Of a DNA stretch of 64,000 nucleotides, positions 447-23,605 are shown one piece after another. This stretch comes from a virus (taxonomy: Duplodnaviria > Heunggongvirae > Uroviricota > Caudoviricetes). Numbering within the stretch: position 1 is the first letter of the stretch; each line of letters begins with the position of its first letter. The notes beneath the pieces were generated by a model, which did not search any database, was not told the origin of the DNA, and saw only the letters and a program-made list of their open reading frames with translations. The position numbers and the translations under genes were made by a program. The stretch lies in IMG/VR virus record IMGVR_UViG_2617270980_000003. One strand, given 5' to 3'.

Positions 447-447
447 C

Positions 448-4041: not shown

Positions 4042-4043
4042 AA

Positions 4044-4458: not shown

Positions 4459-5004
4459 ATGAACAAGCAAACAACAACATCTCTTTCTTTTCCTGGTGGT
4501 AGAAAAGAAAGCATTGCTGAGCGTCTGAAAAGGCTGATTGGCTCCCGCAGCGTCAGAGCTGCAGCAAGAGATTGGGGGCTTTCATTTTCAACACTAAACA
4601 ATTATCTGTCTCGTGGCACTGAGCCATCCTTAAGTGTCGCCCTTCAGATTGCGTCTATCGAAGGAGTAAGTGTTGAGTGGCTATGTGGATTCAGTGATGC
4701 ATCACAAGTGAATCGGTGTGAGATCAAGGAAAATCAAGATGAAAGCAAGAAGATAATTATGACGATTATCAGCGCACTTGATGAAAAAGACTTAGAGCAG
4801 CTATCGAAAAATTTGGTTCTGAATGGAGCCAAGTACTTAGCTCGGTTGTTAGAGCCTGAAAATCAAGATCTAATCCGCTTAGAAGGAAGGAAAAGAATAG
4901 CTGCATTACAGCTTGAAGGTATGTCTGACGAACGCGTCAGAGAGATTTTGGAAGAAACTGAGAGAAGTCGCAAATCTAACGCGGTAGAACCAAAAGCGGG
5001 TTAA
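4459..5004 (+). CDS. prophage repressor (HTH; not similar to Mu c itself)
   Basis: 181 aa at the Mu c position, transcribed toward the prophage end; N-terminal HTH-like segment (WGLSFSTLNNYLSRG). Confidence 0.65.
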   Translation: MNKQTTTSLSFPGGRKESIAERLKRLIGSRSVRAAARDWGLSFSTLNNYLSRGTEPSLSVALQIASIEGVSVEWLCGFSDASQVNRCEIKENQDESKKIIMTIISALDEKDLEQLSKNLVLNGAKYLARLLEPENQDLIRLEGRKRIAALQLEGMSDERVREILEETERSRKSNAVEPKAG

Positions 5005-5069
5005 TAGCATTAGCCCGCATTTTGCACTATATCGAGTATTTCGCATTGTTTGGAACGCCTTAAAAGACT

Positions 5070-5249
5070 AAAACCACAGTATCAAATGAGTTGCCGATTT
5101 TATAATAAATGACTAATTATTGCACAATCGGTATCAAATAGACCTTATCCGCACATCTAGCCATCACCTGTTTTATTTCAGTATCTTACAGGTGATTTCA
5201 CCTCCTTTCACTAAAACCCTTGTCGGTATCAAATGATTCACCTGGTTAT
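5070..5249. repeat. Mu-like prophage left terminal region with three copies of a GTATCAAAT(G/A) motif (candidate transposase-binding sites)
   Basis: Motif copies near 5077-5087, 5131-5141 and 5227-5237, between the repressor stop and the J junction. Confidence 0.45.
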
Positions 5250-6977
5250 AATACTCACGCAGCGGAACAGGCGCTGGCGCAGCGTCGGCAGCTTCAGCCC
5301 CCACACGCTGTATCCGGCAACGCCGTCAGGAACACGGCTAACTTTCACCTTCACGCCGTCGGTGACGGACTGAACCTCCACGCTGACCGGATTGCCACTT
5401 CCGTCAACCAGGCTTATCAGCCTGGTGCCGGAGGATGGCAGCGTGATTTCACGGTCGAGCGTCAGCGTCCGGGTCTGGCTGTTTACCGCCAGCACGCGCC
5501 CGCCGATGCTGATACCGGCATAGTCATCATCACAGATTTCAATGACATCACCCGGCACATGGCGAAGCCCTTCTGCGCCCACGCTGAAGTCCACGGTCTG
5601 CGTTTCCAGCAGTTCTGTTTTAATCAGCCACAGCCCGGCGCGGTGTGCCTGCCCCCGGCTGGTACAGCCAAAAGCATCCATCTTCGTGACGTTACGACCG
5701 TAACGGGCAATGGCCTGCGTATCCTCCACAAGCTCTGTTGCCGTCTCCCAGCCGTTGTTCGGGTCAATCCAGTTCACCTCAACGGCATTATGGCGGTCTT
5801 TCAGGGCGCTAAAGCTGTAGCGGAACGGCGCGCCATCATCCGGCATCACCACATTACTGCGGTTATAGGTCCACACCTTATCCGACGGTCGGTCCTGCAC
5901 GAACGTCAGCGTCTGCCCGTTCCATACCGGCATACAGCGCATCGCCGAGCAGAAATCACTGAGCACATCCCACGCCTTGCGCTGTGTGGTCAGGTACGCA
6001 TTACAGGTGATGCGCGGCTCCGTACCGCCAAAACCGTCCGGCACTGACTGGTCGCAGTACTGGCCGATGACATACAGCGCCCATTTATCCACATCCGCCA
6101 CACCAAGACGTTTCCCCATGCCGTAGCGTGGATGGGTCAGCATATCCCACAGACACCAGGCCATGTTATTGCTGTATGCTGGCTTAAACGTTCCGTCCCA
6201 GATACCGCTGTATTGCCGCGTCTGCGGGTTATAGTTCGACGGCACCTGCAGAATACGCCCGCGCAGATGATAATTACGGCTCACCTGCTGGCTGCCGAAC
6301 TGCTCCGAATCCACCTGCACGCCGACCAGTGCCGTGTTCGGGTAGCACTGTTTCACATCGATGATTTCGGTGTATGACGACCAGAGCGTTTTGTTCTGCA
6401 GCTGGTCTGTGGTGCTGTCCGGTGTCATCCTGCGCATCCGGATATTGAACGGGCGCGGCGGCAGGTTATCCACCACCACCGAGGCCAGATACTGCGACGT
6501 GGTTTTGCCCTTAATGGTGATGTCTTTTTCTGTCACCCAGCCACCGTTACGTTGTATCTGAACCAGCAGGCGGACTTCCGACGGATTCCGGTCACCCTTT
6601 GAGGTGGTTTCCACCAGTGCCTGCACACCGAAGGTAAAGCGCAGACGGTCGATGTTTGCAGACGTGATGGTCCGGGTGATCGGCGTGTCGTATTTCACTT
6701 CCGTACCCAGCACCGTCTCGGAACCGGAGGATTCAAATCCCTCCGGCGGTGTCTGCTCCTGCTCACCTGCCCGGAACACCACCGTGACACCGGAGATGTT
6801 GGTATTCCCCTCACTGTCCAGCACCGGTGTACTGTTCAGCAGCACGCTTTTTAATCCATCCACCGGACCTTCAACCGGCCCTTCGCTGATGGCATCGATC
6901 ACACTCAGTAACTGCGTGGATTTCAGGTTATCCTTCGCTTCGCGCGGGGTATGCCCCTTACTGCTGCCTTTACCCAT
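5250..6977 (-). pseudogene. J: lambda J-like tail tip/host specificity protein, 3'-truncated by the Mu-like insertion
   Basis: N-terminal ~576 aa near-identical to lambda J as recalled (MGKGSSKGHTPREAKDNLKSTQLL... LFRCVSI); similarity ends and a stop follows within 3 codons at the Mu-like end. Confidence 0.9.
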
Positions 6978-7036
6978 TCGTCATGCTCCATAAACGACAA
7001 AACCGCCCGGAGGCGGTTTCACATAAACGTTTTTCA

Positions 7037-7684
7037 TCAGCGACCAATCACCACAACCTGACCACCATCCCCTTCGTCTGCCGTGCTGATCTCCTGAGAG
7101 ACCACCCGCGACCCCACGCGCATTTCACCGTACAGAACGGGCAGAACATTGCCCTGGGCAACCATGTTATCCAGTGAGGAGAAATAGGTGTTCTGTTTGC
7201 CGTTATCTGTACTTGCTGCCGTGGGCGTCCTGGCTTTCGGTGCCAGCATCTGCGCCACTCCGCCCAGGATCATACTGGCCCCTGCCGCATACATGCCCGA
7301 TACAGCCGCGGCACCCAGCCAGCCCACAGGGTTCCACCATGCCACCGCAATCAGCGCCGCCCCCAGCACCACCTGAAACACACCGCCACTTTTAGCTCCC
7401 GCCAGACGCGGCACGATGTGGATCACGGCACCATTTGCCAGCGGCTCATTAAGACGGGCAGACAATTCGGTTTCACCTGCATCACGCCCGGCAATGCGTA
7501 CCTGGTACCAGCCGTCGCTCAGTTTCTGACGAAACGCCGGGATCTGCATGGCCAGCGCCCGGATGGCTTCGGACCCCGTTTTCACTCGAAGGTCGATGCG
7601 GCGGCCAAATCGTTGTAAATCCCCGTAAAGGCAGATGCGTGCCATGCCCGGTGACGCCAGAGGGAGTGTGTGCGTCGCTGCCAT
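7037..7684 (-). CDS. I: lambda I-like tail tip assembly protein
   Basis: 215 aa, MAATHTLPLASPGMARICLYGDLQRFGRR... matches lambda gpI as recalled. Confidence 0.9.
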   Translation of the reverse strand: MAATHTLPLASPGMARICLYGDLQRFGRRIDLRVKTGSEAIRALAMQIPAFRQKLSDGWYQVRIAGRDAGETELSARLNEPLANGAVIHIVPRLAGAKSGGVFQVVLGAALIAVAWWNPVGWLGAAAVSGMYAAGASMILGGVAQMLAPKARTPTAASTDNGKQNTYFSSLDNMVAQGNVLPVLYGEMRVGSRVVSQEISTADEGDGGQVVVIGR

Positions 7685-8334
7685 TTGTCGGTGTACCTCT
7701 CTCGTTTGCTCAGTTGTTCAGGAATATGGTGCAGCAGCTCGCCGTCACCACAGTAAATGGCGGCATGATTCGGCACCGATGAACCAAAACAGCACAGCAG
7801 CACATCGCCCGGCTGCGCCGCTGACAACGGCACCTGATACAGCCCTGTGGCCTCCAGATTATCCAGATAGAGATTCTGACCGTTACGCCACCAGTCATCC
7901 TCGCGATGAAAATCCGGCATCTCAATCCCCGCCAGATGGTAAGCATCCCGGAACAGCGTGTAACAGTCCGTCACCCCGTGCTCAAAGCGCCGCCCGGAAA
8001 GATGTGGCACACAGCGGAACTTGTGAATCGCCCCCCGGCAAACCAGCCACCACGGCAAATCACTCTGCACCTGCAGCCGCCGGTCGGTCTCACTCAGCCA
8101 GGGCAGACCACCGGGGTGGCTGTGGACCAGCGCCACAATCTCACCCTGCATCTCTGCCCGCAGCCAGTCCTCCGGCGACATCCGGAAATACTCCTCCGGC
8201 TCACCGGAGATATTCACGCAGGGAAAATATCTTTCCCCCTCCGGTGTTCTCACCACGAAGCCGCACGACTCCGCTGGCGCACATCGCCGGGCGTGCGCCA
8301 GAATCGCTGATTCTGTCTCTGTCATGGGATTCAC
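7582..8334 (-). CDS. K: lambda K-like tail tip assembly protein (start may be internal)
   Basis: Matches lambda gpK as recalled (HSHPGG JAMM-like motif, C-terminal cysteine peptidase-like region); overlaps I as in lambda. Confidence 0.85.
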   Translation of the reverse strand: MNPMTETESAILAHARRCAPAESCGFVVRTPEGERYFPCVNISGEPEEYFRMSPEDWLRAEMQGEIVALVHSHPGGLPWLSETDRRLQVQSDLPWWLVCRGAIHKFRCVPHLSGRRFEHGVTDCYTLFRDAYHLAGIEMPDFHREDDWWRNGQNLYLDNLEATGLYQVPLSAAQPGDVLLCCFGSSVPNHAAIYCGDGELLHHIPEQLSKRERYTDKWQRRTHSLWRHRAWHASAFTGIYNDLAAASTFE

Positions 8335-9029
8335 TGCGAAAGTTTGTTAATGGAAAGGAAGCCGCCAAAGTTGCCGACGTTATTGCGAAACTTACAGCCG
8401 CTCAGGCATTTGCTGCATTTATCCTTCGTGATATCGGAGGTCGGCTGGTCATATTCATCCGCGACCGCCGGACCGTGATAACCGCACTCATCACCGCGAT
8501 AGGTCCAGGTGCAGGTATTAGCCAGCATGATGCGCCCCGGAAAAACAGCGCCGTCCGTTTCCGTCGGCGTGGACAGTACAAAAGAGGCACTCACCGCGCT
8601 CAGTTCGCTGCACTGCTCGATGCGCCAGCGGCTGATCACCTCCTGCTCCGGATCGGCGTCACTGTTTCCGTTGACGAAGTTCACCGCATCCAGAAAACGG
8701 GCGTAAACCTTACGCCGGACCACCGTTCCTCCGACCAGACTCTGCAGGTCTTCCGCCATCCCGGTGACCATGCCGTGCAGGTTAGAAACCGTCAGTGTCG
8801 GACGGGCAGCACTGCCTTTGCCGTTCAGTTCAAATCCCGTCCCCTGAATGGGATACGCCTGATACTGTCGCCTCTGCCAGGTGACCGGCTCACCTTTATC
8901 GTTCTGCTCATTACAGAAAAAATAACGTTCTCCACCGACCACTGTCAGATCGATTTCCCAGAGCACCACCTGGGCTGACTGAGTGAGGAGTGTCGTCTCA
9001 TGATGTGTTTCCTGTGGAATATCCTGCAT
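8331..9029 (-). CDS. L: lambda L-like minor tail protein
   Basis: 232 aa, same length and position as lambda gpL; C-terminal Cys cluster. Confidence 0.9.
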   Translation of the reverse strand: MQDIPQETHHETTLLTQSAQVVLWEIDLTVVGGERYFFCNEQNDKGEPVTWQRRQYQAYPIQGTGFELNGKGSAARPTLTVSNLHGMVTGMAEDLQSLVGGTVVRRKVYARFLDAVNFVNGNSDADPEQEVISRWRIEQCSELSAVSASFVLSTPTETDGAVFPGRIMLANTCTWTYRGDECGYHGPAVADEYDQPTSDITKDKCSKCLSGCKFRNNVGNFGGFLSINKLSQ

Positions 9030-9038
9030 CAGAGACTC

Positions 9039-9368
9039 CTATGCCACGACCTGTTCAAAATCTGCCGTTATGGTTACCCACAACGCCCCCACGCTTGCCG
9101 ACCATTTACGACAAACCACCCTGATCGGCTTCCAGTCATAAGGTGGCGTCCACTGAAATGCGCGGACGCCACCGTGCCGTTCCAGAAAGGCTTTTAAAGA
9201 TGGGTGTTCACATTTACGAACACGTATCGTCACGCTGTAAATCGACAACTGGTTATTCAGTCCCGCCGCACGACGCTGTTCATAACCATCGCCCAGCTTC
9301 ACTGTCACCACTTTCGGCTCTGATACCACATTCATATCCGGGCGCACTTTCCAGTGAAACGTCTCCAT
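9039..9368 (-). CDS. M: lambda M-like minor tail protein
   Basis: 109 aa between H and L, lambda gpM-like. Confidence 0.88.
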   Translation of the reverse strand: METFHWKVRPDMNVVSEPKVVTVKLGDGYEQRRAAGLNNQLSIYSVTIRVRKCEHPSLKAFLERHGGVRAFQWTPPYDWKPIRVVCRKWSASVGALWVTITADFEQVVA

Positions 9369-12300
9369 TACCGATATGCTCCACTTAACCGACCACCATC
9401 ACGGGCCTGCTGTTGCATAAAGTCCGCTGCCGCTTTTTTCCCAAGGTCATAAACCACCTTCAGGGCAGCCGGACCTATCTGCCCGTTCGTGCCATCGTTA
9501 TTGATCTCGATGTTGTACTGCGGGGCAAACATCGCCATACCTGAACCACCAATATCCGCCACAACCCCCAGCTTACCGTCAGCACCACGACGCAGTGGCA
9601 GAATGGCTTCAGGTCCAGCTTCCCCCATCACACCCGCGCCTTTTGCAAAAGCAAAAAACGTCGGACGGTTAACCACCGTGCCACTGTAACGACTCAAATC
9701 AGCAGACTGATAAATCCCCCCATTGGCATTCAGGGAAAGGCTGCTGAGATCAAATCCCAGTACACTGCCAATCCCTTTTATCGATTTCATCATGGTTGCC
9801 TGCGCCAGGATTTTCGCCATATCTGACAGCACCGAAGAGGTGAAGGATTTGAAGTTGAGTTTGCCGGTAGTGACAAAAGTTGCCAGGCCATTTCCCATGT
9901 TGCTGAAGGCTGATGAGAACCCCTGTTCTGCTGTTCCTGCCGTATTGTCTGCATCCACGGTAAAATCCTGAAATGCACGCAGGACTCCGTTTTTCCAGTT
10001 ACCCTGCACAACTTCAAGCTGTTGCCAGTAACGGCGATTCTCATTCAGTTGTCGGTTCAGGCTCTCCGTCAGCGCCTGCTCGGCCTTTCTGTAGTCATCC
10101 GTGTTATATGTCCCTTTCTGCTCACTATCCCGCCTCAACTGCTCCAGCTGTTGCTGGTATTTCTGGCGAAGACTCAGTTGTACCTGATATCGCTGCCGCT
10201 GCTGATCACCCATACCCACCGTGGCGATATCCAGGTCATGTTGCTGACGCTGAGCGCGCTCTTCTTCAGCCAGTTGACTGGTCAGCTGAATTGTTTTTTT
10301 CTTCAGATCGTTGAGTGCCGTTTGTTTCTGAAGCTCCTGCTGTTTTACATCCAGCAGCGTCAGTGCCTGAATCAGTTCATCTTTACGGGCCAGCACACTC
10401 TTTTCATCTGCCGTCAGTTTTTTCCCGTCCAGATCGCTGATGCGCTGCTGCAGAGCCAGAAGCTGTTTATGCGCTTCTGTCATCTTTTCAGTGGCAATGC
10501 CTGCTGACTGTCTTGCAGCAGCAATCTGTCCTTCCACCTGTGCCTGTTGCTGACTGTACTGCAGCAATAACCGGGTGGCCTCATCATTACGGGTTTCGCG
10601 TGTTTTTTTCTTACCGGATGCCAGGGCTTTCTCGTAACGTTCATTTTCACGTTGTATCGCCGCATCCCTGACAGCCTGGTCGGCGTACTGCATGGCATTA
10701 ATACGCGCAATTTCACGCTGATGTCGTGCTGCTTCCGTTTCATTCATCCGGTTCAGTGCAGCATTTTCAGCATTACGTCGTTTCTGTTGCTCCTGATAAT
10801 TCCGCTCTGCCTGCTCTTTTGCATCCTGCAAATCCTTCTGGCGTTTTTTCTCCTGAAGATCGTTAAGACGCTGCTGATCGTATTCAACCTGAGAAGATGA
10901 TGCCGTCCAGGGGAGTCTTTTCGCCCGCGACACTTTCTCCTGTAAAGCGGTAATCTGTTCATCCAGCGAGTCTTCACGACCAATATTCATGGCCGCATCC
11001 CAGAAACGACTCCACAAATCAGACAGATACTTCAGCGTACTGCCAAGCGCATTGAGGTTATTATCAATATCCGCAGTACGCCGACCGGTTTCCTCTGCCA
11101 GTGCAGACATGGCTATCCGTGCAGCATCACTGGACCGTCCCTGATCCCCAAGGACACGTATCTGCTCAAGCTGAGTGGCAGTAAGAAAATGCAGCTCATT
11201 GTCCAGAGCCTTCGCGGCATTTACAGGATCATCCTTCAGCCGCTTAAACTGATTTATGGTATCGCTGACCGACTGGCCAACCGATCGCTCCATCTGTGCG
11301 GCAGCTCTCGCCACCATACCGATATCGTTTCCACGAAATGCACCACTCCCCACCACCTGCGCCAACGCACCGGCTGCAGCATGTTGCGTGATACCATTCC
11401 CGGAAATAGCACGACTGAGCGTCCACAGCTGCCCGGCAGTGACTCCGGCATAATGCCCCGTCAGCGACAACTGGCGGTTAAATTCTTCCCCCTCCTTCTG
11501 ACCGTCATACCAGGCTTTACCCAGACCATAGACGGCCGCGGCAATACCGCCAATAACCCCGCCAAGCATCATGCCTTTCGGTGACATCAGTGTGTCTATC
11601 CATCCGGCACGGTTAGCCAGCGTTATCCCGGATCCCCTCAGCGCCCCTAAATTGCCGCGGGCCAGTTCACCTATCAGAACGCCTATCTCCTGGCGGGCTG
11701 CTGCACTTTTCAGACCCAGCGAATGCGTGGCTTTTCCTGCCTGCTCCATTTTGCGGATATACACTTCTGCAGCACTGCTTACCCCCAGCTGGGCTGCCTT
11801 GGCACGAAGCAACTCAGAAGATGAAAGATTCTGGCGGGTTGCCTGCTCTTTAAGCTGACGGATAAACGCCACTTTCTGTCGGGTAGCCTCTTCCTCAGCC
11901 TGTGTAAGAACACGGGTTTTCGCAGTAACCTCAGAAATCAGCGCCAGATAATCCTGCTGACCAATCCCGCCACTGTTTCTGGCCTGTCGGATCTGCTGCT
12001 GAATACGCTGTAATTCCTGCAGCCCCGCACTGGCCTGTTTCACACTGTCAATCTGACGATAAAACGCAGCAGCCGCTTTATCCTGAGCCTCCGCCAGAGC
12101 CATGGCCTGCGCCTGTTCCTCGCGCATTTTCTGGCTCAGCGCCTCCATGCGCTGGCGGGTTTTCTCCACCTCGCGGGCCATGCGTTCATGAGCCTGTGCG
12201 TTCTTCTCCACCGTCTGCGCATGGACGGATGCGGCTGTTGCAGCCGAAGAAGCCGCCTGCGTTGTCTGCCGGGCGGCCTGAGTCTGACGCTCCATAAAAC

Positions 12301-12433
12301 GCTGCATACGGGCAGAAGACCGTTCTGCATCGCTGGCTGCACCATTCAGAAGGTTTTTGATACGGGGAATTTCATTTTTAAACTCTGCCGCATCAATCCC
12401 CAAATCAATGACCAGGTTGGCTATCTGGTCCAT
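9368..12433 (-). CDS. H: tail tape measure protein (lambda H-like)
   Basis: About 1020 aa, coiled-coil/Ala-Gln rich, position between G/T and M; ATG at 12433 preceded by GGAGGTG, whereas the ORF-track start at 12463 is TTG. Confidence 0.85.
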   Translation of the reverse strand: MDQIANLVIDLGIDAAEFKNEIPRIKNLLNGAASDAERSSARMQRFMERQTQAARQTTQAASSAATAASVHAQTVEKNAQAHERMAREVEKTRQRMEALSQKMREEQAQAMALAEAQDKAAAAFYRQIDSVKQASAGLQELQRIQQQIRQARNSGGIGQQDYLALISEVTAKTRVLTQAEEEATRQKVAFIRQLKEQATRQNLSSSELLRAKAAQLGVSSAAEVYIRKMEQAGKATHSLGLKSAAARQEIGVLIGELARGNLGALRGSGITLANRAGWIDTLMSPKGMMLGGVIGGIAAAVYGLGKAWYDGQKEGEEFNRQLSLTGHYAGVTAGQLWTLSRAISGNGITQHAAAGALAQVVGSGAFRGNDIGMVARAAAQMERSVGQSVSDTINQFKRLKDDPVNAAKALDNELHFLTATQLEQIRVLGDQGRSSDAARIAMSALAEETGRRTADIDNNLNALGSTLKYLSDLWSRFWDAAMNIGREDSLDEQITALQEKVSRAKRLPWTASSSQVEYDQQRLNDLQEKKRQKDLQDAKEQAERNYQEQQKRRNAENAALNRMNETEAARHQREIARINAMQYADQAVRDAAIQRENERYEKALASGKKKTRETRNDEATRLLLQYSQQQAQVEGQIAAARQSAGIATEKMTEAHKQLLALQQRISDLDGKKLTADEKSVLARKDELIQALTLLDVKQQELQKQTALNDLKKKTIQLTSQLAEEERAQRQQHDLDIATVGMGDQQRQRYQVQLSLRQKYQQQLEQLRRDSEQKGTYNTDDYRKAEQALTESLNRQLNENRRYWQQLEVVQGNWKNGVLRAFQDFTVDADNTAGTAEQGFSSAFSNMGNGLATFVTTGKLNFKSFTSSVLSDMAKILAQATMMKSIKGIGSVLGFDLSSLSLNANGGIYQSADLSRYSGTVVNRPTFFAFAKGAGVMGEAGPEAILPLRRGADGKLGVVADIGGSGMAMFAPQYNIEINNDGTNGQIGPAALKVVYDLGKKAAADFMQQQARDGGRLSGAYR

Positions 12434-12734
12434 AACGCACACCTCCGGAAATACCTTCCCCAAGATGCATCAGTTCTTCGTCCGTTCGCTCCGGTATCCC
12501 GTTCTCTTCCGGTAAAAGGCTGAAATCAGCCACCGCAGCATCACTGCTGCCGGACACCATTCTCACGATCAATGCCTTCAGCGAGGCAAACTGCGCATCC
12601 ATCCACACATCACTGAAGCTCTGCATCCGGAAATAATCGCCCCACTCACCAAGCTCAGTGGCCGACATTTCCGACAGCATCCGCCGCCAGTCTGCCCGCC
12701 TGAACTCCCGGGCAAGCCGCATGACAAACTGCAT
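12405..12734 (-). CDS. T: T portion of tail assembly chaperone G-T, reached by -1 frameshift from G
   Basis: ORF in -1 frame relative to G, open from 12767, overlapping the G 3' end; position identical to lambda G/GT. Confidence 0.6.
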   Translation of the reverse strand: MQFVMRLAREFRRADWRRMLSEMSATELGEWGDYFRMQSFSDVWMDAQFASLKALIVRMVSGSSDAAVADFSLLPEENGIPERTDEELMHLGEGISGGVRYGPDSQPGH

Positions 12735-12742
12735 TTCCCGCG

Positions 12743-13132
12743 TCAGGACTTTTCCGGCGTCAGCACCTCATGCTCCAAATCCCCGGCATTCTCAATGGCT
12801 CCCATACCGCTCAGCGACAGAACCATCTCCGCCCCCGCTCCCAGGGCATCATACGACCATGTTGTAATAACGGATGCGCAAAGCGTCTCAACATCCTGAG
12901 ACTGTTCCGCATTCCACAGTGAGCGGGAAACCAGCCAGGCATTGATATCCATCCCCATCCGTAGAAAAGCAATCTGTCGTTCAGCCTCCGGCAGTTCTCC
13001 CTCTTCGGCATCAAACTTTGCCGCTCGCTGCTGAACAAACGCCAGATATTCAATTCTCTGCAGCCCGGACAGCTCACTGAGCACCACGGACTGCTTTTCA
13101 TAATTAAACGTGCCCTGTTTCAGAAACATCAT
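12743..13132 (-). CDS. G: tail assembly chaperone G
   Basis: MFLKQGTFNYEKQSVVLSELSGLQRIEYLA matches lambda gpG N-terminus as recalled; upstream of T ORF. Confidence 0.8.
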   Translation of the reverse strand: MMFLKQGTFNYEKQSVVLSELSGLQRIEYLAFVQQRAAKFDAEEGELPEAERQIAFLRMGMDINAWLVSRSLWNAEQSQDVETLCASVITTWSYDALGAGAEMVLSLSGMGAIENAGDLEHEVLTPEKS

Positions 13133-13189
13133 GTTCTCCACCTGCAAAAAAGCCCCGGATAACCGGGGCAAATGATGAGTATCGTCCTG

Positions 13190-13932
13190 TTAACCTGCGG
13201 CGCTGACAGCCACCGTAGCCACTGCCACAAAATCGCCGTCAGAAGTCATGCCCACAATGCTGACACTGCCCTGCTTCACGCCTTTCACCGTGGCCACAAG
13301 CCCGTTCAGGGTCACCGTGGCAGTCTGTGGATCTGTCGAATGCACACTGATCGCTTTGTCACTGGCTCCGTCAGGTTTTACTGTAAAGGTCAGCGTGGTG
13401 GTTGCTCCCACTTTTACACTGGCAGATGCCGGTGCCACCGTCAGCCCGGTAACGCCCACGATTTCAGTGCCTTCCTCTGCCAGATACGGACGCCCCACAC
13501 CGCTGATTTTCACTGTGCGGGTCATCACGTCTTTTGAGGCAATGGTTTTACCCAGTGAACTCAGCCAGCCACGGAAAACATCAACAGTACCGTTGGGATA
13601 TTTGATACGAAAAGCGCAGACTTCACCGGAGTCGAACAACTGAACCAGTTTTTTCTGCCCGCTGTCCCCCGGACGCCAGGCCAGCGTCGCCGAAGTATCA
13701 CCGACTGATTTCTGCCCCTGGGTTGTCGTTTTCCAGTCTGCATTTTCATCATCGAGATAAGTGTCATCTTCTGCATCAGCGGTCATTTCGCCAGGTTGCA
13801 GATCCTTCACCATCGCAAGACGCAGCCAGTCAGTGTCCGATAAAGGGTTCGCAAACGCATCGCCCTTGCCGGTATACATCCAGAACGTCGTTCCCGCACC
13901 TTTCGTTTTTGCCAGTGGATTTGGTGTGTCAT
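13190..13932 (-). CDS. V: major tail protein V with C-terminal Ig-like domain; apparent frameshift at codon 2
   Basis: Body matches lambda gpV as recalled; AAGGAGGT-ATG at 13930-13932 is out of frame with the body, and conserved N-terminal residues lie upstream of the first in-frame ATG (13877-13879). Confidence 0.7.
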
Positions 13933-13942
13933 TACCACCTCC

Positions 13943-14356
13943 TTAATTCGTGTACGTGATCTGGTACGTGATTTCCGCCATCGCCCAGGTGGCCATCTCA
14001 TTATCACGTTGATAGTTAAAACCGAGTGGGATCAGGGTGTCGATGAGTCCGGAAAGTGCTGGTACATCATTCAGGGCCGGGAAAATGGTGCTCTCCATCC
14101 ACATATCCAGCTCTGAATCCGGTGCCTGTGCCCGGATGAAGACAGCAATATGCAGAACAGCCTGCCAGTCATCTTCATCCGTCATTTTTCCGGTGTACTG
14201 AGCATCACTCAGCCACACCGCCACGGCAGGCAGTTCCTGCGCATCAACAAATGCCGGAAGCCCGTCAAAAAACGTGGCGCTGTCTCCACACTGTTCCCGA
14301 AGGCGTGCCAGTACGACCTGGCGGATTTGTGTATGTCGGTTCATCGGGTCAGCCAT
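13943..14356 (-). CDS. U: tail terminator protein U
   Basis: 137 aa; ATFFDG...FPAVAVWL...DSELD.WMES motifs match lambda gpU as recalled. Confidence 0.85.
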   Translation of the reverse strand: MADPMNRHTQIRQVVLARLREQCGDSATFFDGLPAFVDAQELPAVAVWLSDAQYTGKMTDEDDWQAVLHIAVFIRAQAPDSELDMWMESTIFPALNDVPALSGLIDTLIPLGFNYQRDNEMATWAMAEITYQITYTN

Positions 14357-14919
14357 AACCTCAGTTGTTGTTTCAGTGCATACCCCAGCTGTTTCGGCAT
14401 TTCCGCAGCAATGATGCGGTCGCGGGCATCTTCAAATGTCTGTGTCAGCGGTCCGGACAGCGGGATTTTCACCACATCAATGGGGTAACGATTTTTGCCA
14501 TCAATACGCCGCATCACATGCCAGCGACCATTCGCCAGTTGCTGAATAAACGCATCCCGGAAAAGATATTTACCCACCTTCAGCACACTGCCACGGTACT
14601 GCAGTTTTCCACCACGCCGGGCCAGTCTGACCCGGGCTGTCCCCAGCTTAATGGCAGGCAGATTGCCCCGGTTAACGCGGATCCTGGCCGTCATTTTTCC
14701 TGACGGACTGGCTTTAAACACCCGGACACGCTGACGTACCAGTTTCAGGGGGATCCCTTTCACCTGGTTATCTCCCGCAACGGTATTCCCGGCAACCTGC
14801 CGGGTGGCAACCGAGACCGCTTTCTGTGCCACACGGTTTATCGCCCATGCGCTGGCCTGTGGCACCATACGGGTATCAAGGCTGTTCAGATTGCGGATGG
14901 CATTCTCAAGCCCCTTCAT
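14341..14919 (-). CDS. Z: tail completion protein Z
   Basis: 192 aa; KGLENAI...NRYPIDVVKIP...LGYALKQQLR matches lambda gpZ as recalled. Confidence 0.85.
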   Translation of the reverse strand: MKGLENAIRNLNSLDTRMVPQASAWAINRVAQKAVSVATRQVAGNTVAGDNQVKGIPLKLVRQRVRVFKASPSGKMTARIRVNRGNLPAIKLGTARVRLARRGGKLQYRGSVLKVGKYLFRDAFIQQLANGRWHVMRRIDGKNRYPIDVVKIPLSGPLTQTFEDARDRIIAAEMPKQLGYALKQQLRLWLTR

Positions 14920-14930
14920 CCCACACCTCT

Positions 14931-15206
14931 TTACTCAATAAAGATCATTGGCTTACCGTTAAAGCGTTCATGCCGTGTGACCGTCCATTGTTGTCCGTCA
15001 TAAACAACGCGATCACCGCGCCGTGGGCGGTATCCCGAAGAAAACACCACCAGAGAGACCGCAGGTCCGGACAGAGCATTCAGCTCTGCCAGTGTTTCTC
15101 CCGGGATCACAGTCATATCGACATCATTAATCGAGGCTGTCTTTCCCATCTTTCTGACCGTGATAGCATCCATACGCGCTGCCAGCCGGGAAAAGGGATC
15201 AGACAT
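14931..15206 (-). CDS. head-tail joining protein (lambda FII-like)
   Basis: 91 aa at the FII position; RRGD...W.V.R motif resembles lambda gpFII. Confidence 0.65.
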   Translation of the reverse strand: MSDPFSRLAARMDAITVRKMGKTASINDVDMTVIPGETLAELNALSGPAVSLVVFSSGYRPRRGDRVVYDGQQWTVTRHERFNGKPMIFIE

Positions 15207-15522
15207 TGAGTTTTACCGGCACTTCTTCTGCACTGGTTCCGGCATCTGCCCAGACAACCCCGACCAGCGGATCAGAGCCGCTGTTAGTCAGCTGAATTTT
15301 TCCGGACTTCAGATAAACCTTCTTACCCGTTTTCATGTCATCCGTTTTCAGCTTAGGCAGCATAAACACACCTTCGGTCATGCCGTCGCCTGTTTCACCC
15401 TGTGGAATATCGGTCAGCGCCACCGCAAAAACATCGCCCACCTGCACCAGATCTCCGCTGCTGATGGCTGCACTGGCAACAATCGCCACCGTTTTTCCTT
15501 CTTCTACAAAATTCTTTGCCAT
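15199..15522 (-). CDS. DUF2190-like small head-associated protein
   Basis: About 108 aa immediately downstream of the capsid gene; resembles the small protein found next to capsid genes in many enterobacterial prophages. Confidence 0.5.
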   Translation of the reverse strand: MAKNFVEEGKTVAIVASAAISSGDLVQVGDVFAVALTDIPQGETGDGMTEGVFMLPKLKTDDMKTGKKVYLKSGKIQLTNSGSDPLVGVVWADAGTSAEEVPVKLNV

Positions 15523-15608
15523 AACTGTCTCCGCACAGCCCCGTTCAGGGGCTGATTTCAGGTACAAAAAAAGCCCTTACGGGCCATCAGAGTTGTTGTC
15601 TGCGACGT

Positions 15609-17567
15609 TTACGCCGTACATTTAACCAGACCGCGGTGATCAACTGGCGCGACACCGGCGTCAATACGCACTTTCGTTGTCACGCCATCCACACTGAAGC
15701 CCTCCATCTGATCAATATATGGCGTATCCACACCGTTAAGATAAGCCACTTCAATCGTATCGGAGCCTTTTGACGCAGCCAGGTAGAAGGTGATCTGGCT
15801 GTTATCATCAAGACGAGGCTCTGCAATAACGGTCGCAAAATCTTTCACCGGGTTAATAATACCGGCGTTAATGTCAGCCCCCTTGACACTTGAGGAGCGA
15901 ATGACCTGGTTAGCAACAGACTCCATCGCCGTCGGTACCAGTACGAACGCAGGACGAATATTCAGATGACGCTCCCCCTCTTTCTGAACGCGCATCAACT
16001 GGCGGGCTTTATCCAGCGATGCCACGTCCATTGCAGCGCTCTCCAGTACGTTTGCATGTTTCGCTTTATCGAACAGACTTACATTATCTGTGGAGATTTT
16101 CGGGTTAGACGTCAGAATGGCATAAACCAGATCGGCAATAGTGGATTTCGCCGCACGGCCCAGTTTCATCGGGACATCGGTCAGCATATTCAGATCATCA
16201 TTGATAATGGCCTGACGGGTGATACTGAACAGCTCGCCATAGGTCGCCAGTGCAATAGTGGCCTGTTTATCTCCGGTGGTGACGTATTTATATTCCGCCC
16301 CTTCACGCACCTGACGCAGAGCACTGAAGCCCCCCATACCCACACGATGGGCAATTTTAAAATCAGACAACTGACCTTTCCGCGTCCACTGTTCATAGGT
16401 TTCAGGGGCATCTTCCCAGCCCTGCAGAATGGCTTTGTTCGCAACATCCAGCAGAATATTACCGAAGTCAGACGTACTGTGTGTGAACGCCGCACCGACC
16501 ATCTGCATCGGGTTATAACCGGAAACCCCAATACCCCGTTCAGTTAGTGACATACGGGCATATTCACGCAGGGTCATCCCGTTGTAGACATTATCACGTT
16601 CGGTTTTTTCAAATCCGGCACGCGCCATCAGCGCCTGGCGAATCCCGTCCCCCACAAAATTACCGTTACCGGCATAAATATGAGCCGGGGTATTTTTATT
16701 GGATGGCGTGGACTCGCGCCCCATCTCGTTCAACAGCTTTTCACGGGCCTGCTCCAGCGAACATTCAGGATCGGCAAGACACTGAGCCTGCAGCGTCTGA
16801 TAACGCCCGCCAAACATGGCAAACAGATCACTAATACCGTTTACACGCGCTTTTTGCTCTGCCAGTACCTGCGCACGGATGCTGTTTTCATCCACCACGG
16901 GTGCTGCTGCCTGCACTGGCGTCCGGGAGGCTTCAGATTCATTATCCTGTACGCGTGGAGCACTGTTGCGTGGCGGAGTAATCATGTTTCGAATGGATTC
17001 CGGCATCTTTTTAAATTCCTCTGTACGTTTTGACTGAATACATGCCATTGCCTTAACGGCTGGCGTTACCTGATCAGCAAATCCATGTGCCAGACATTCG
17101 GCACCGGACATCCAGGTCTCATCCGCCAGCATGGCAGCAATTTCATCGGTGGTTTTCCCGGTTTTCTGTGCATAAGCGGGTAACAGAACCGCCTCAACTT
17201 TATCGAGTAGGTCGGCATAGGTGCGCATGTCCTCCGCATCACCGCCCGTAAAGCCAAATGGTTTATGAATCATCATGAAGGTGTTTTCCGGCATAATGAC
17301 CGGGTTTCCTACCATCGCAATGACCGACGCCATTGACGCCGCCACACCGTCGACATAAACGGTAATGGACGCACCATGTGTTTTCAGCGCATTAAAAATG
17401 GCGATGCCTTCAAAGACATCGCCACCCGGTGAATTAATATGGAGATTAATGTGGGTGATATCGCCCAGTGCATTCAGATCACTGATAAACTGCTTCGCTG
17501 TAACACCCCAGAAACCAATCTCGTCATAAATATAAATATCCGCGTCACTCTGGTGACCAGCCTGCAT
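15609..17567 (-). CDS. prohead protease (ClpP/S14-like) fused to scaffold-like linker and HK97-fold major capsid protein
   Basis: N-terminal ClpP-like block (IYIYDEIGFWG...INSPGGDVFEG...SMASVIAMVG), long C-terminal capsid-like region; ATG at 17567 just after portal stop (ORF track extends further into portal). Confidence 0.75.
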   Translation of the reverse strand: MQAGHQSDADIYIYDEIGFWGVTAKQFISDLNALGDITHINLHINSPGGDVFEGIAIFNALKTHGASITVYVDGVAASMASVIAMVGNPVIMPENTFMMIHKPFGFTGGDAEDMRTYADLLDKVEAVLLPAYAQKTGKTTDEIAAMLADETWMSGAECLAHGFADQVTPAVKAMACIQSKRTEEFKKMPESIRNMITPPRNSAPRVQDNESEASRTPVQAAAPVVDENSIRAQVLAEQKARVNGISDLFAMFGGRYQTLQAQCLADPECSLEQAREKLLNEMGRESTPSNKNTPAHIYAGNGNFVGDGIRQALMARAGFEKTERDNVYNGMTLREYARMSLTERGIGVSGYNPMQMVGAAFTHSTSDFGNILLDVANKAILQGWEDAPETYEQWTRKGQLSDFKIAHRVGMGGFSALRQVREGAEYKYVTTGDKQATIALATYGELFSITRQAIINDDLNMLTDVPMKLGRAAKSTIADLVYAILTSNPKISTDNVSLFDKAKHANVLESAAMDVASLDKARQLMRVQKEGERHLNIRPAFVLVPTAMESVANQVIRSSSVKGADINAGIINPVKDFATVIAEPRLDDNSQITFYLAASKGSDTIEVAYLNGVDTPYIDQMEGFSVDGVTTKVRIDAGVAPVDHRGLVKCTA

Positions 17568-17580
17568 CCTGAACCAGGAA

Positions 17581-19089
17581 TTATTCTTCGGGCTGGTCGT
17601 CGGTGTGCTGCGGCTCCTGTCGTTTCGTTGCGGCACTACTGCCTCCTTTATCACTGGCCGGATCGGTATCAAATACCAGATCCAGCTTGCGGTTTTCATC
17701 AATTTCGGCCTTGCGCCGACGTTTGACATCATCCGGATTACGACCACCAGCACGTACCCAGTCTGATTCTGTCGCCGCTCCACCACGAATCTGGATTTTC
17801 CAGGCCTCAGCCTCCTTAACAGGGTCAATCCACGGCATCACTGGTCCGGAATACACCGCGGTATACAGTGAAGAACGGTCAAGATCGCGGGGTAGCCTGA
17901 TAACACCGGATGCCACAGCCTGTTTCAGCCATGCACGATACATCGGGCGGGTGACGGCACCAATAAACCAGTCCTGCAGGATCAGGTAGCCATCAGTGGA
18001 TTCAACCAGCTCCTGACGCTGGGCGCTGTAAGTGCCGTTATAGTTGCGCGCTGTACTGGAAAAACTCAGACGACTGCCCGCCGCCACGGCACGCAACTGA
18101 CCATTACGAAAAGTTTCAAGGTTAGGATTGGGGCGATCCGACTTCACCATTCCGATTTCTTCGCCGGGTTTCAGATCGTCGTAAATAATGCCCGGCTGAA
18201 TGGTAAGCTCACGTTCATTCTCCTTTCTGCCATTACCATCCGGTTCATAGCTCTGCCCGTCGCCTTTCCGGATGTACATCCCCAGAGCAGCGGCGATCCT
18301 TGCTGCAGTCAGCTCAGAATCTTCATATTCTTTCAGGGCACTGAGGCGGATCAGCACACCGGACAACAAAGACGTCCCGCGCATCTGGTGCAGACGGCGA
18401 ACAAATTTAAGATGCAGCATTCGCTCTGCATCCACTTCTTTGGTTTCCATCTGCCGTCCGGATACGGGACGGCTTTTATACACCAGATATTTTTCGGGAC
18501 GCCCCCAGTCATCAACAAACACGCCCTGATTCAGCCTGTTGCTCTCATCACTGGTCATGGGAATAAAGTCCGGCTCGAGCGCCTCCAGCCAGAAATGAAC
18601 ACCGGCAGAAGGCGCCAGGCTGTTTATGCGCCCGGAAACCATCTGGGCAAACACCTCACCATCGCGCAGCCAGGTACGAAGCATCAGACGTTCCAGCATC
18701 GGACGGGTAAACTGCCCGGTGACTTCCGGGCTGACAGACCATTCACTCCATCGGGTGCGAATCTCCGCAGCCAGGTCACGGGCAATGGCCCCATTGCGTA
18801 ATACCGGATGTGGCTCGACAATAATCCCGTTTTTCCCCACCACCCGTTCTTCCAGCTTATCAAATACACCAATAACCAGATCGTGGTTGTTATCAAGGTA
18901 ACGGGCCTGCTCACGTAACGACACGGCCCCGTACTGGCTTAACTGGTCGGCAGTTCGGTTCTCCCGTCGGGCTTTGTGTGTCCGCGTCGTTTTTACGGCC
19001 TCATAAGCCTGGATCACCGCACGGGAACGCAGCCTTGCCGCTTTCCATCCTGGTGAAAAAACGCCAATCACATCATCAAGAATTGCCAT
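17581..19089 (-). CDS. portal protein (lambda B-like)
   Basis: About 500 aa between gpW-like gene and protease-capsid gene; start MAILDD overlaps W stop. Confidence 0.8.
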   Translation of the reverse strand: MAILDDVIGVFSPGWKAARLRSRAVIQAYEAVKTTRTHKARRENRTADQLSQYGAVSLREQARYLDNNHDLVIGVFDKLEERVVGKNGIIVEPHPVLRNGAIARDLAAEIRTRWSEWSVSPEVTGQFTRPMLERLMLRTWLRDGEVFAQMVSGRINSLAPSAGVHFWLEALEPDFIPMTSDESNRLNQGVFVDDWGRPEKYLVYKSRPVSGRQMETKEVDAERMLHLKFVRRLHQMRGTSLLSGVLIRLSALKEYEDSELTAARIAAALGMYIRKGDGQSYEPDGNGRKENERELTIQPGIIYDDLKPGEEIGMVKSDRPNPNLETFRNGQLRAVAAGSRLSFSSTARNYNGTYSAQRQELVESTDGYLILQDWFIGAVTRPMYRAWLKQAVASGVIRLPRDLDRSSLYTAVYSGPVMPWIDPVKEAEAWKIQIRGGAATESDWVRAGGRNPDDVKRRRKAEIDENRKLDLVFDTDPASDKGGSSAATKRQEPQHTDDQPEE

Positions 19090-19307
19090 CAGAACCTCGC
19101 CAGCCGGTACCCGGGATGCCCCCGTCGTCGTGTAATCAGAGCCGCAAGGCGGCGCTCCCACTCCTGCCGTCCCTGCCGGATCTCAGATAAGTTTTCCATG
19201 GTCATCTGCTGACCATTAAAGGTGACGGATTTTCCGTCCAGCACCGCCATTTCAGCTTCCGTATAACGCTGAATCATGGCTTCGATATCATTCTGGTTCA
19301 TAACCAT
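19089..19307 (-). CDS. head-tail joining protein (lambda W-like)
   Basis: 72 aa between terminase large subunit and portal, as in lambda. Confidence 0.6.
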   Translation of the reverse strand: MVMNQNDIEAMIQRYTEAEMAVLDGKSVTFNGQQMTMENLSEIRQGRQEWERRLAALITRRRGHPGYRLARF

Positions 19308-21397
19308 CCTCCGGAAGTCAGCCAGGGGTTAACATCGTCAGTTACTGTTTTCTTCCGTTTTTGTTTTTTAACAGGCGTGGATACCGGTTCCGGTGAGGAT
19401 GACGGTTCGGTACTGTCCTGGACACACTCCAGCCAGGTCTCCCGGCTCGCCCACTCCGGTGCATCCGGCCAGCGGATCTTTTCGTATCCATGCAGAATGA
19501 CCAGAGCCTCGGCATACACCATCAGGTCAAAAGCTTCGTTGGCACCGCGACCCGGCTTACTCCATTTCCCGTCACTGCTCCGCTCTTCATACGTCAGTTC
19601 GTCGTAAAACCAGCTCCCCAGCCAGTCAGGGAAATGCACATAGCCTGGACCTGGCGAGTCACGCCATAACGCGTTATTCACCCGGTCTTTCAGGGCATCC
19701 GTCTGAAGAAGCCAGAGCGGCACATCACCTGCGGCCTGCGCCCGGCGGCCCGTTCGTCCGGTGTTATCAGGGAATGTACGGCTGATCAGTTTTGCGCGCC
19801 GGATGCTGTCACCCTTAAACAGGTAAATACGTTTACCAAGGCCATCACGACGGCAACGACGCCAGAATTTATAGGCATTATCAGTGACCCCGTCTTCACC
19901 GCCGGAGTCCACCGCCATTGCCATCAGTCGCATTTGTTGAGAAGGATCGGAGGCCAGCGGCCAGCTTTTATGAAAAACATCCGTCAGCAGGACATCCCAG
20001 TCTTCCGGATAGCTGGCCGGATCAATTCGCTGGCTCTCCCCGTCGCAGTCACTGCGCAATGACTGCGTGATGTTGTAACGATCAATAATCCAGCGTTCGC
20101 CACGACTGCCATAGCCCGTTACCTGAACCACAAAACGGCGATGACGTCCCGCCTGCACATCCACTGTCGCCACAAGGAAATTAACGCCATCCGGCACACT
20201 GCGGGAAGGAACTAGCTCTGCCCGCTGCTCAAGCAGTTCACTTTTTCGTTGCTCCATGCTGGCACGAGGAAGATAAGGCAATCCCCAGTCGGTGTTGATA
20301 ACCGCCCTGAGTGTTTCTTCGCTTCCTGTCGCTTCATACTCCTGTTCTGCAGTCAGTAATTTGTAAACCAGTTGCGCCCAGGTCTGATACGCAGCAGCTG
20401 GCCCTTCCATCCAGAAACTGGCGATACGGGAGCGGCGCGGTTCACCGGAAACGTTGCCGTTACGATCAATAACCTGACCTTCACGCAACCAGACTCCTGC
20501 ACTATTGAGCTCACGCTTTTTCTCCGCAGTGATAATGCCGCTGCAGTGCGGGCAAAGTAGATACGCCGCCTCACTGGCTTTAAAGGGATCCGGTTCATTA
20601 CGGTAGCCGGTCATGGCATCCATGGCTGGCTGAAAATATTCACCGCAGTGCGGACATGACCAGTACCAGCGGCGGCGGTCACCACGATTGTAAAGGGAAA
20701 GAATACCAGTCGTCGGTGGCGCTTCATGAGGCGACTTACGTCGCCATTTGCTGTCGCAGATGTCACGTCCCGGCGAGCTCTCCACCAGAGTCATCCCGGC
20801 GGACATAAATGTGGTGGTACGTTTTGAGGCCAGGGAGAAACCATCACCCTCGCTGTCGATATTCTCCGGAAAACGGTCGTAATCGGTTAAGGCGACAAAC
20901 CGGTAATCCGACGACGACATAATGTTGACCGAGGGCCAACCAATTTTAAGGAACGAGCCATCCCTGAACGTCTTATCATGGACATTATTGTCGTTACGAC
21001 GTGGACTCATTCTTTTCTTTACCGCCGCACTGCTTCTGAACGTTCTGTCGAGGCGCTTTTTAGAATGCTCGCGGGCCTTATCTTCGGTCATCTGCACAAC
21101 GAGCATGTCCGAAGGATCGCAAACGATGGTATAGACAATCCATCCATCGATCAGACCAATGGTCTTCCCTGTTCGCGCAGGACCAACAAAAATCACCGCA
21201 TCGTATTCACGCGATGCCAGGCAGTTCATGGGCTCAATGATGTAGGGTGTCAGTTCAGGATCCCATGGCACCGAGTTACCAGCCCCCTTGGGAACACGCA
21301 TGAATTTTTTAACAGCCTCCGAAATCGGCATGCGACGTGGTGGGGAAAATCCTGCCGATATGTCCCTTCCCAAATTTCGGGCTGATGAAAAACCCAT
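19298..21397 (-). CDS. terminase large subunit (lambda A-like)
   Basis: 699 aa; CPHCGEYF motif region resembles lambda gpA; follows Nu1-like gene. Confidence 0.88.
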   Translation of the reverse strand: MGFSSARNLGRDISAGFSPPRRMPISEAVKKFMRVPKGAGNSVPWDPELTPYIIEPMNCLASREYDAVIFVGPARTGKTIGLIDGWIVYTIVCDPSDMLVVQMTEDKAREHSKKRLDRTFRSSAAVKKRMSPRRNDNNVHDKTFRDGSFLKIGWPSVNIMSSSDYRFVALTDYDRFPENIDSEGDGFSLASKRTTTFMSAGMTLVESSPGRDICDSKWRRKSPHEAPPTTGILSLYNRGDRRRWYWSCPHCGEYFQPAMDAMTGYRNEPDPFKASEAAYLLCPHCSGIITAEKKRELNSAGVWLREGQVIDRNGNVSGEPRRSRIASFWMEGPAAAYQTWAQLVYKLLTAEQEYEATGSEETLRAVINTDWGLPYLPRASMEQRKSELLEQRAELVPSRSVPDGVNFLVATVDVQAGRHRRFVVQVTGYGSRGERWIIDRYNITQSLRSDCDGESQRIDPASYPEDWDVLLTDVFHKSWPLASDPSQQMRLMAMAVDSGGEDGVTDNAYKFWRRCRRDGLGKRIYLFKGDSIRRAKLISRTFPDNTGRTGRRAQAAGDVPLWLLQTDALKDRVNNALWRDSPGPGYVHFPDWLGSWFYDELTYEERSSDGKWSKPGRGANEAFDLMVYAEALVILHGYEKIRWPDAPEWASRETWLECVQDSTEPSSSPEPVSTPVKKQKRKKTVTDDVNPWLTSGGWL

Positions 21398-21405
21398 TAT
21401 TCCTC

Positions 21406-21963
21406 CTAGAGACTCTCTCCTTCCTCATCAGGAATTAATTCAGCAGCACAAGCCTCGTAGGATTTTTCCTGAAGAGTGTATCGCAGGTCATCAATGGCCT
21501 GCTGTACAACGCCGACGGCCTGAGGAGTCAGGGCGCAATCGCGTTCAAGAACATCCGGAATTGTCTCCAGAACCTGGACGACAGCCTTTCTCATGGACGA
21601 ATAGACGATGACTACTTCATCAACGGGGATGAGTTTTCGCTGCTCCTTTTCCAGCTTGATCCTTTCATTTTCAGATTGGTACCAGTCCTTTCTCTCTTTC
21701 GGCTCCATACGGGATGGATCATGAACAGAGTCTGCTGCCTCATGCTTCACACTAAACAGGGCTGGCCCGACATGCTGCAGGGCGTAAACGGGGTTCCCCC
21801 TGATAGTCGCAGCCACAGGAGTGTTGGCCGCGAGGAGCCGTTTTTTTACTGTGTCCCGGTGAAGCCCAAAGGCCTCAGCGATTTTAAAAACACTCCAGTA
21901 ATAAGCATCACCGATCCCGCTCACATTTGACATAAGCAACTCCATCTGGCAGGTGAAAATCAT
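21406..21963 (-). CDS. terminase small subunit (Nu1-like, N-terminal HTH); start uncertain
   Basis: HTH segment FKIAEAFGLHRDTVKKRL near N-terminus; directly upstream of the large subunit. Confidence 0.7.
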   Translation of the reverse strand: MIFTCQMELLMSNVSGIGDAYYWSVFKIAEAFGLHRDTVKKRLLAANTPVAATIRGNPVYALQHVGPALFSVKHEAADSVHDPSRMEPKERKDWYQSENERIKLEKEQRKLIPVDEVVIVYSSMRKAVVQVLETIPDVLERDCALTPQAVGVVQQAIDDLRYTLQEKSYEACAAELIPDEEGESL

Positions 21964-22495
21964 GTTTATTTATATATTTCAATTAATTGCAAACTGGTCT
22001 AATGACAGGGAGAAAAAAATATTGTACAGGTGAAAAGAGAAATAACTTTTAATTATCAATAAATTACCAAACATGCTGCCGCCGCCATGGAAATGCAAAA
22101 ACTAGCCTTTTTCCGCGACGCTCCCGCCCCGTGGCAGGGACCCCCACTGGGAGGACCCGACAGCCTGACAACCGTGACGAGCATCTGAAACAGAGCTTTA
22201 CATAATGGCATGGGGATAATTCAGAAGGACATCACAGCATGCCCACACAAATTAGTGTGAGTGTCCTGTTTCTTACTACGCGCAGGACTGACGAGCATGA
22301 GGGGAAAATACGAGAACCGAAATGCCTTATCTTCAGAAATGCAGCCGGCATCCGAACTGGACGATATTGTAAATTCACCTAAATACGAGGCATTGCTGTA
22401 GTTGAATTGCATTGCTGTATTAGCCTGACAGTGACAGAATACGATATTGACTCTGTCACTTGTGAAATGGTCAGAATGGTTAGCAGTTATGGTGA

Positions 22496-22702
22496 TCAGT
22501 CAACCACCAGGGAATAATCCTTCGTATTCTTATCGTGCTTTACTAACGCGGCCTCAATTGCCCTGAATGCTTCCAGAGACACTTGATGTTCTATACATGC
22601 AATTACAACATCCGGGTAACCCATCGAAATGGTGCTATTAAGCATAGTTTTTACACGAACCTGCTCCTGGGAGGGGGCATCAGTGTATTGTTCTTTATGC
22701 AT
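22496..22702 (-). CDS. hypothetical small protein (lambdoid cargo region)
   Basis: 68-aa ORF in AT-rich region between cos-proximal region and the gns-like gene. Confidence 0.3.
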
Positions 22703-23572: not shown

Positions 23573-23605
23573 AATGTTACCGTAATATGTGAGTATCCAT
23601 CGACT

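Follow-up and report, generated by a model that had tools for sequence, protein, structure and literature searches.

The closest described counterpart of the gene analyzed here is gene V of phage lambda, whose product, gpV, is represented by several structures (PDB 6p3e, 7t2e, 2k4q, and 2l04). The lambda tail contains ∼190 copies of gpV in 32 hexameric rings (PMC10721106). In the monomer, residues 1 to 14 form a flexible loop, the N-loop (PMC8718954), and in the assembled tube these residues are ordered, with flexible loops mediating the contacts of adjacent rings (PMC10721106; PMC8718954). Strand β1 of gpV precedes the O-loop, residues 24 to 38 (PMC10721106; PMC8718954). Tube growth is blocked in the lambda D61A/D62A double mutant (PMC8718954). 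The intact orthologue of the gene V described below has the same two-domain build as lambda gpV and aligns with it over its full length; shared features are the N-terminal motif P-N-P...KGAGTT(L/F)W, the acidic loop LDDEDADW, and the gene order U-V-G-T-H.

Closer still are the V genes of Escherichia coli prophages, such as that in strain ETEC6335, and of the phages cdtI, mEp460, phi458, Ayreon, and Tritos, which show 96 to 99.7% nucleotide identity to our sequence across the V start; over the late region the phages are 95 to 98% identical and ETEC6335 up to 99.6%. Their V Shine–Dalgarno (SD) sequence and ATG are the same as those studied here, and the ETEC6335 and phi458 proteins are identical to the one encoded here except for a D64N substitution. 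Unlike our sequence, all of these genes have ACC at codon 2 and encode Asp64, and several come from isolated, viable phages.

Here we analyze gene V in a 64,000-nt window (the whole stretch of DNA examined). Unlike lambda gpV, this V is frameshifted at codon 2, carries D64N, and appears to be a pseudogene. Our reading, to which we assign a probability of roughly 0.93, is that the frameshift arose by a real, heritable 1-nt deletion in a decaying, vertically inherited lambdoid prophage.

Identity and Genomic Setting of Gene V

Position numbers are window coordinates, and V, U, and all lambdoid late genes lie on the minus strand (Table 1). The 229-aa ORF of the window matched the tube domain model PF16461 with 220.4 bits (cut-off 26.1), compared to 222.9 bits for the intact orthologue. 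The PF02368 (Big_2) match scored 44.5 bits against a cut-off of 22.8, and this domain aligns to lambda gpVC (PDB 2l04). The intact orthologue from E. coli W2-5 aligned to 6p3e with an E value of 8.1e-87 over residues 1 to 245 and to 9mfe with an E value of 2.7e-88, and a tblastn search with residues 3 to 247 of ETEC6335 V gave 99.6% identity to the window with no gaps and no stops. The gene order in the window is Z-U-V-G-T-H-M-L-K-I-J, placing V between the tail terminator gene U and the genes for the chaperones G/T and tape measure H. These neighbors were confirmed by Pfam in identical carrier loci, where gene U matched PF06141 (Phage_tail_U); the U protein of the window is 100% identical to that of ETEC6335 (133/133 residues). 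All features of gpV-type genes were found except an intact frame from the conserved SD-ATG, which stops after 41 codons. These features identify V as encoding the major tail tube protein of an E. coli lambdoid prophage of the cdtI/mEp460 type. Two plus-strand ORFs, 13723-13959 and 13761-13946, are antisense to this well-supported gene and were rejected as spurious.

Table 1. Features of the window discussed in the text
Feature	Position	Strand	Remarks
Mu-like prophage, left end	1-5250		Junction with J at 5250/5251
Mu-like AAA ATPase B	939-1880	−	
Mu-like transposase A	1954-4041	−	695 aa; Mu domains
Mu-like repressor-like ORF	4459-5004	+	181 aa; the Mu-like element also has an HTH
Tail tip gene J, N-terminal 576 codons	5250..6977	−	tblastn, J residues 1-576 of 1137; ends at the Mu-like end
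Lambdoid late block	5251-23633	−	Far flank is a Qin-like Q-holin-lysozyme-cspI-ynfQ segment, 55659-63717
V body, residue T3 to stop	13190..13927	−	Lambda-type tail tube domain and C-terminal Big_2 Ig-like domain; no internal stop
V codon 64, AAT (Asn)	13742..13744	−	Acidic loop LDDEDADW, near lambda D61/D62; Asp in intact alleles
Out-of-frame ORF, MTHQIHWQKRKVRERR...LRW*	13807..13932	−	41 codons translated from the SD-ATG; TGA at 13809-13807
First in-frame start, ATG (Met19 of intact V)	13877..13879	−	From the ORF listing; 229-aa product
A5 run, GGCAAAAACG	13906..13910	−	Only −1 slip site back to the V frame; speculative, non-canonical
Lesion, codon 2 remnant AC (ACC in relatives)	13928..13929	−	Alignment; pairwise indel listing against three E. 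coli genomes
Ancestral V start ATG	13930..13932	−	Out of frame with the V body; annotated V start in six relatives
V Shine–Dalgarno, AAGGAGGT	13937..13944	−	4 nt upstream of the ATG; strong; read directly
Tail terminator gene U	13943..14344	−	Intact; 133 codons and TAA stop, 13945-13943
P2-like prophage, ∼32 kb	∼23634-55658		Annotations of P2-family capsid, GPO scaffold, gpM, late control D, and Ogr

Three prophages, lambdoid, P2-like, and Mu-like, are nested within the window. The P2-like element lies between ynfQ/cspI and ynfN and splits the late operon, separating the lysis genes from the terminase; its flanks are contiguous in other genomes, such as NZ_OZ546922.1, where they overlap by 14 bp. 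No perfect direct repeat of at least 8 nt was found flanking this element. The sole repeat at its junctions is an imperfect one (11/14; 23620-23633 versus 55659-55672), consistent with the 14-bp overlap in NZ_OZ546922.1. This P2-like prophage is 95 to 97% identical to one in E. coli ES1 (bullfrog), the next best match being ∼80% identical. At 61594, an intergenic run shows an A7 versus A8 length difference relative to strain PSJ-07. An Rfam scan of the whole window at the gathering threshold found nothing near V. Its sole hit was the cspA thermoregulator at 55837-56253 on the minus strand (109.8 bits), which covers cspI (aligned to locus L065) and its leader.

Sequence homologous to positions 1 to 5250, the Mu-like end, was found in other genomes at unrelated chromosomal positions; the window contains neither the remainder of this element nor distal J. 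The preliminary description of this DNA had noted a truncated J. J is indeed incomplete in the window, but the cause is insertion of the Mu-like element after codon 576 and not a deletion.

The V Start Codon Is Out of Frame with the Gene Body

From 13948 downward, the minus strand reads A ATT AAG GAG GTG GTA ATG ACA CAC CAA ATC CAC TGG CAA AAA CGA.... The stop codon of U overlaps the V SD by the two bases at 13943 and 13944. The AAGGAG core of this SD is the same in five aligned relatives, the next base being C rather than G in cdtI, and the V coding sequence is annotated from the equivalent ATG in W2-5, phi458, mEp460, cdtI, Ayreon, and ETEC6335. In the window, the ORF that begins at this ATG encodes a peptide that had no Pfam match and is unrelated to V. 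The V body is instead encoded in the −1 frame, which translates as N*GGGND-TPNPLAKTKGAGTTFWMYTGKGD... and is open to the stop at 13192-13190; written from the upstream stop, the same frame is *GGGND-TPNPLAKTKGAGTTFWMYTGKGDAF..., uninterrupted to that point. From the TAA to the internal ATG at 13879-13877, the V frame contains no ATG, GTG, or TTG. Direct reading of the 5 to 10 nt upstream of the internal ATG (GGTGCGGGAACGACGTTCTGG-ATG) revealed no GGAG- or AGGA-like motif, and this ATG sits within the translated 41-codon ORF. As the frame offset between the ATG and the V body is a direct reading of the sequence, a chance model is unnecessary. Translation of both frames confirmed the preliminary description in its claims that the SD-ATG is one nucleotide out of register with a gpV-like body and that the first in-frame ATG lacks an SD and gives a product short of conserved residues. 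The lambda gpV N terminus given there for comparison was also correct: PDB 6p3e begins MPVPNPTMPVKGAGTTLW, which aligns to MTTPNPLAKTKGAGTTFW of the intact relatives.

To locate the lesion, we aligned the site with E. coli W2-5 and phages phi458, mEp460, cdtI, and Ayreon, among which phi458, mEp460, and Ayreon are isolated phages. All five relatives read ATG ACC ACA CCA AAT (MTTP...), whereas the window reads ATG AC- ACA CCA AAT. Thus, one C of codon 2 has been deleted, although which C of the CC pair is ambiguous. In each of these relatives V is annotated as a gene of 744 nt encoding 247 aa and beginning MTTPNPLAKTKGAGTTFW. The alignment to intact orthologues therefore supports the earlier proposal of a frame-disrupted V in a defective lambdoid prophage. 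The preliminary description had named homologues starting farther downstream, at the internal ATG, as evidence against that proposal; none was found, and all fetched annotated relatives, as well as lambda gpV, start at the upstream position.

The Deletion Allele Is Rare and Recurs in Independent Assemblies

When a 301-nt query across the site was used, 1,849 E. coli and 17 phage records matched; the length covered was 302 or 303 bases in nearly all of the matches listed, none of which was identical to the window. No deletion carrier was found among isolated phage genomes (17 phage records matched). A shorter query (65 nt across the site), able to tell perfect matches from those with one gap, hit 1,827 complete E. 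coli genomes without a single perfect match (1,827 records at 95 to 99% identity and 3 at 90 to 95%); among 5,426 complete RefSeq genomes of E. coli, none carried the deletion allele. A pattern fitting both alleles identified 46 contigs in IMG/VR, 45 of them intact and 1 deleted. An exact 34-mer scan of GTDB species-representative genomes returned no match, a result that is uninformative about the allele.

An out-of-frame start might reflect programmed recoding, that is, a conserved frameshift at the V start analogous to the downstream G/GT. Indeed, programmed frameshifting (−1) operates in lambdoid tail operons at the next gene pair, G/T. The arrangement at V, however, is not conserved, and on this ground a programmed frameshift was rejected: perfect matches were absent among the 1,827 genomes, the V start is in frame in the five aligned relatives and in 45 of the 46 IMG/VR contigs, and each of the 17 phage records differs from the window. 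Moreover, the 5 nt from the ATG to the start of homology contain no slippery heptamer, and the zero-frame sequence preceding the junction has no heptamer of the canonical X XXY YYZ type, there being only an A5 run that lies 20 nt downstream. We regard programmed recoding as the least probable of the readings considered, with next to no likelihood. The G/T chaperone pair itself is intact in the window (12734-12760, minus strand), with T in the −1 frame to the end of G. The sequence there, ...CCG GAA AAG TCC TGA, is where the conserved programmed frameshift of G-GT would be expected, and its heptamer differs from the lambda G GGA AAG.

The rarity of the allele, with its absence from the 5,426 complete RefSeq genomes and the GTDB species representatives, would by itself also be compatible with a sequencing or assembly error in a genome that truly has ACC and an intact V, and single-base indels are the commonest assembly error. 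The preliminary description had named such an indel as its alternative. Against this, the identical deletion was present in 11 other fetched sequences, namely an IMG/VR contig (L006) and 10 fetched loci from five NCBI isolate drafts, two ENA gut metagenomes, and three Logan SRA assemblies. These sequences differ from the window by 1 to 44 substitutions, and in them the deletion is always linked to D64N. Carriers include GCA_000705005.1, GCA_030511505.1, SRR32301706, and ERR3317654. The site is merely a CC dinucleotide and not a long homopolymer. The rest of the 18.4 kb also argues against an error: relative to the closest genomes, ETEC6335, MS15047, and TK3888 (99.5 to 99.6% identity over 18,383 nt), no coding sequence has a frame-breaking indel other than that in V. 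The remaining gaps either fall between genes or, in a divergent part of J, occur as a pair that compensate each other. From ynfN to I, the 19 further complete late genes retain their full length and contain no stops, indicating that the window sequence is of good quality.

Carriers can also be recognized by their annotation. The exact 229-aa product is indexed in 40 blocks of the protein collection, with 24 contigs read, and is recorded on 19 contigs, one of them named for E. coli 3-475-03_S4_C2; on these 19 contigs, the gene callers chose the Met19 start. Certain carrier contigs are listed for two or three samples and the underlying isolates may be shared, so that there would be fewer truly independent observations, though several projects and sample types are represented. 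Because the identical lesion and its linked substitution occur in independent assemblies, we reject a sequencing error as the explanation and consider it extremely unlikely.

D64N Is Linked to the Deletion

All 11 fetched deletion carriers share D64N. In contrast, Asp64 is present in 20 intact proteins, in 39 of 40 intact IMG/VR alleles, and in lambda gpV, and D64N was not seen among the intact alleles examined. The substituted residue is two residues from lambda D61/D62. The exact repaired 247-aa V protein was absent from a collection of 15 billion proteins. D64N could have arisen after V was inactivated, or could itself have been an earlier defect. The V sequences of the carriers are identical, and a test for purifying selection within the clade therefore has no power.

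Order of Events in the Carrier Clade

The carriers differ in their other lesions. Loci L010, L011, L013, and L014 have a full-length J and a cold-shock gene directly upstream, the latter showing that the P2-like element is absent from them; V is the sole late gene disrupted in L010 and L011. Carriers with an intact J and neither a P2 nor a Mu insertion include GCA_030511505.1 and GCA_030003495.1. By contrast, the gene found upstream in L012, L015, L016, and L018 is the ogr gene of P2. The Mu insertion and a G at 9921 (in H) are shared with the window by L012 alone, the other carriers having T at 9921. L012 (GCA_000705005.1, from E. coli 3-475-03_S4_C2) is the locus closest to the window source and is not identical to it, with 3 mismatches and 1 gap in 18.4 kb.

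As L010, L011, L013, and L014 retain a full-length J, the lesion in V arose before that in J, and the two were independent events and not one deletion episode. The preliminary description had taken V and J together to suggest a defective prophage; the prophage does appear defective, but the J lesion came later and independently of that in V. By parsimony, the order of events would be the V frameshift (with D64N), then the P2-like insertion, and then the Mu-like insertion in J. The allele would thus mark a small clade of nearly identical prophages that has been vertically inherited while decaying further, with sublineages later gaining frameshifts in the tape measure or decoration genes or P2-like or Mu-like insertions, the window having the last two.

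Specifically, a 1-nt deletion in tape measure gene H is present in L014 and L017 (∼11217 equivalent), the same lesion in two samples; L018 has a 1-nt deletion in a T5 run of the DUF2190 decoration gene (∼15431 equivalent); and L012 has a 1-nt deletion in the A-run of gnsB (∼23113 equivalent). We interpret these extra single-base deletions as lineage-specific secondary decay. Together with the insertions, the extra frameshifts are what would be expected if a dead prophage were drifting while being passed on vertically.

The substitutions that separate L013 and L014 from the window cluster in K/I/J (5251-8300 equivalent), with 40 of 44 located there in L013 and a 94.9%-identity block in L014. 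This clustering indicates that recombination replaced the tail-tip module in prophages already carrying the V deletion. In principle, the V allele might likewise have been moved by recombination among lambdoid prophages sharing a host, a point that counts against the proposed history.

Predicted Consequence for Tail Assembly

In the proposed mechanism, ribosomes recruited to the intact SD-ATG would read the 41-codon nonsense ORF, and the V frame would be left without a usable start before Met19, which itself lacks an SD. Given these two features, full-length gpV would not be made and no tails would form. The absence of functional tube protein and of tails is thus the most likely outcome predicted from the sequence.

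We also considered that the tail module is leaky, with V still yielding a functional tube protein either from the Met19 start (229 aa) or after tRNA-Lys slips back by one base (−1) on the A5 run. The Pfam tube model starts at residue 18, so that the 229-aa product keeps profile positions 2 to 135 of 135, and residues 1 to 14, which a Met19 start would remove, are in lambda the flexible N-loop of the monomer. However, Met19 lacks an SD and lies inside a translated out-of-frame ORF. Starting there also removes the conserved KGAGTT(F/L)W, which is shared with lambda and lies upstream of the O-loop, and the 229-aa product would be without the N-loop and part of strand β1. As to the slip, perfect re-pairing is possible after a −1 shift on the A5 run (CAA AAA CGA), and the shift leads precisely into the V frame, but the site lacks the canonical X XXY YYZ form and a stimulatory element was not identified. 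A further demand on either route is the ∼190 copies of gpV needed per tail. Finally, the clade has fixed D64N at an otherwise invariant residue and has acquired further late-gene frameshifts, which points to relaxed selection and not to maintained function, and no carrier was found among isolated phage genomes. For these reasons, we consider a leaky V very unlikely.

The slip taken by itself, in which low-efficiency −1 slippage of tRNA-Lys on the A5 run (13910-13906) would yield full-length tube protein and leave V not fully dead, is slightly less probable again. Its product would be 247 aa long and altered only at residues 3 to 8 (HQIHWQ for TPNPLA) and by D64N. If it did occur, carriers without the Mu and P2 insertions would keep a strongly lowered but nonzero capacity to make tails, and this would be an accidental recoding rescue and not an evolved one.

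Discussion

Frameshift pseudogenes in the cryptic lambdoid prophages of E. coli are part of general prophage decay. The pseudogene described here shows no substantive difference from them, with the same kind of single-base indel, vertical inheritance, and added mobile-element insertions, and the V lesion is ordinary prophage decay, an already known kind of event. Another example of a frameshift in a tail gene is that in stf of laboratory lambda (PMC10721106).

For annotation, our analyses mean that the V locus should be described as a frameshifted major tail protein pseudogene and not as the 229-aa "phage tail protein" of public records. The lambdoid prophage in the window would not be expected to make infectious particles alone. 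The V deletion and the linked D64N provide a convenient marker of the clade, which lets later events be ordered. The nesting of the Mu-like and P2-like elements is neat, if unsurprising, and the locus offers a small, clean example of stepwise prophage decay and prophage nesting.
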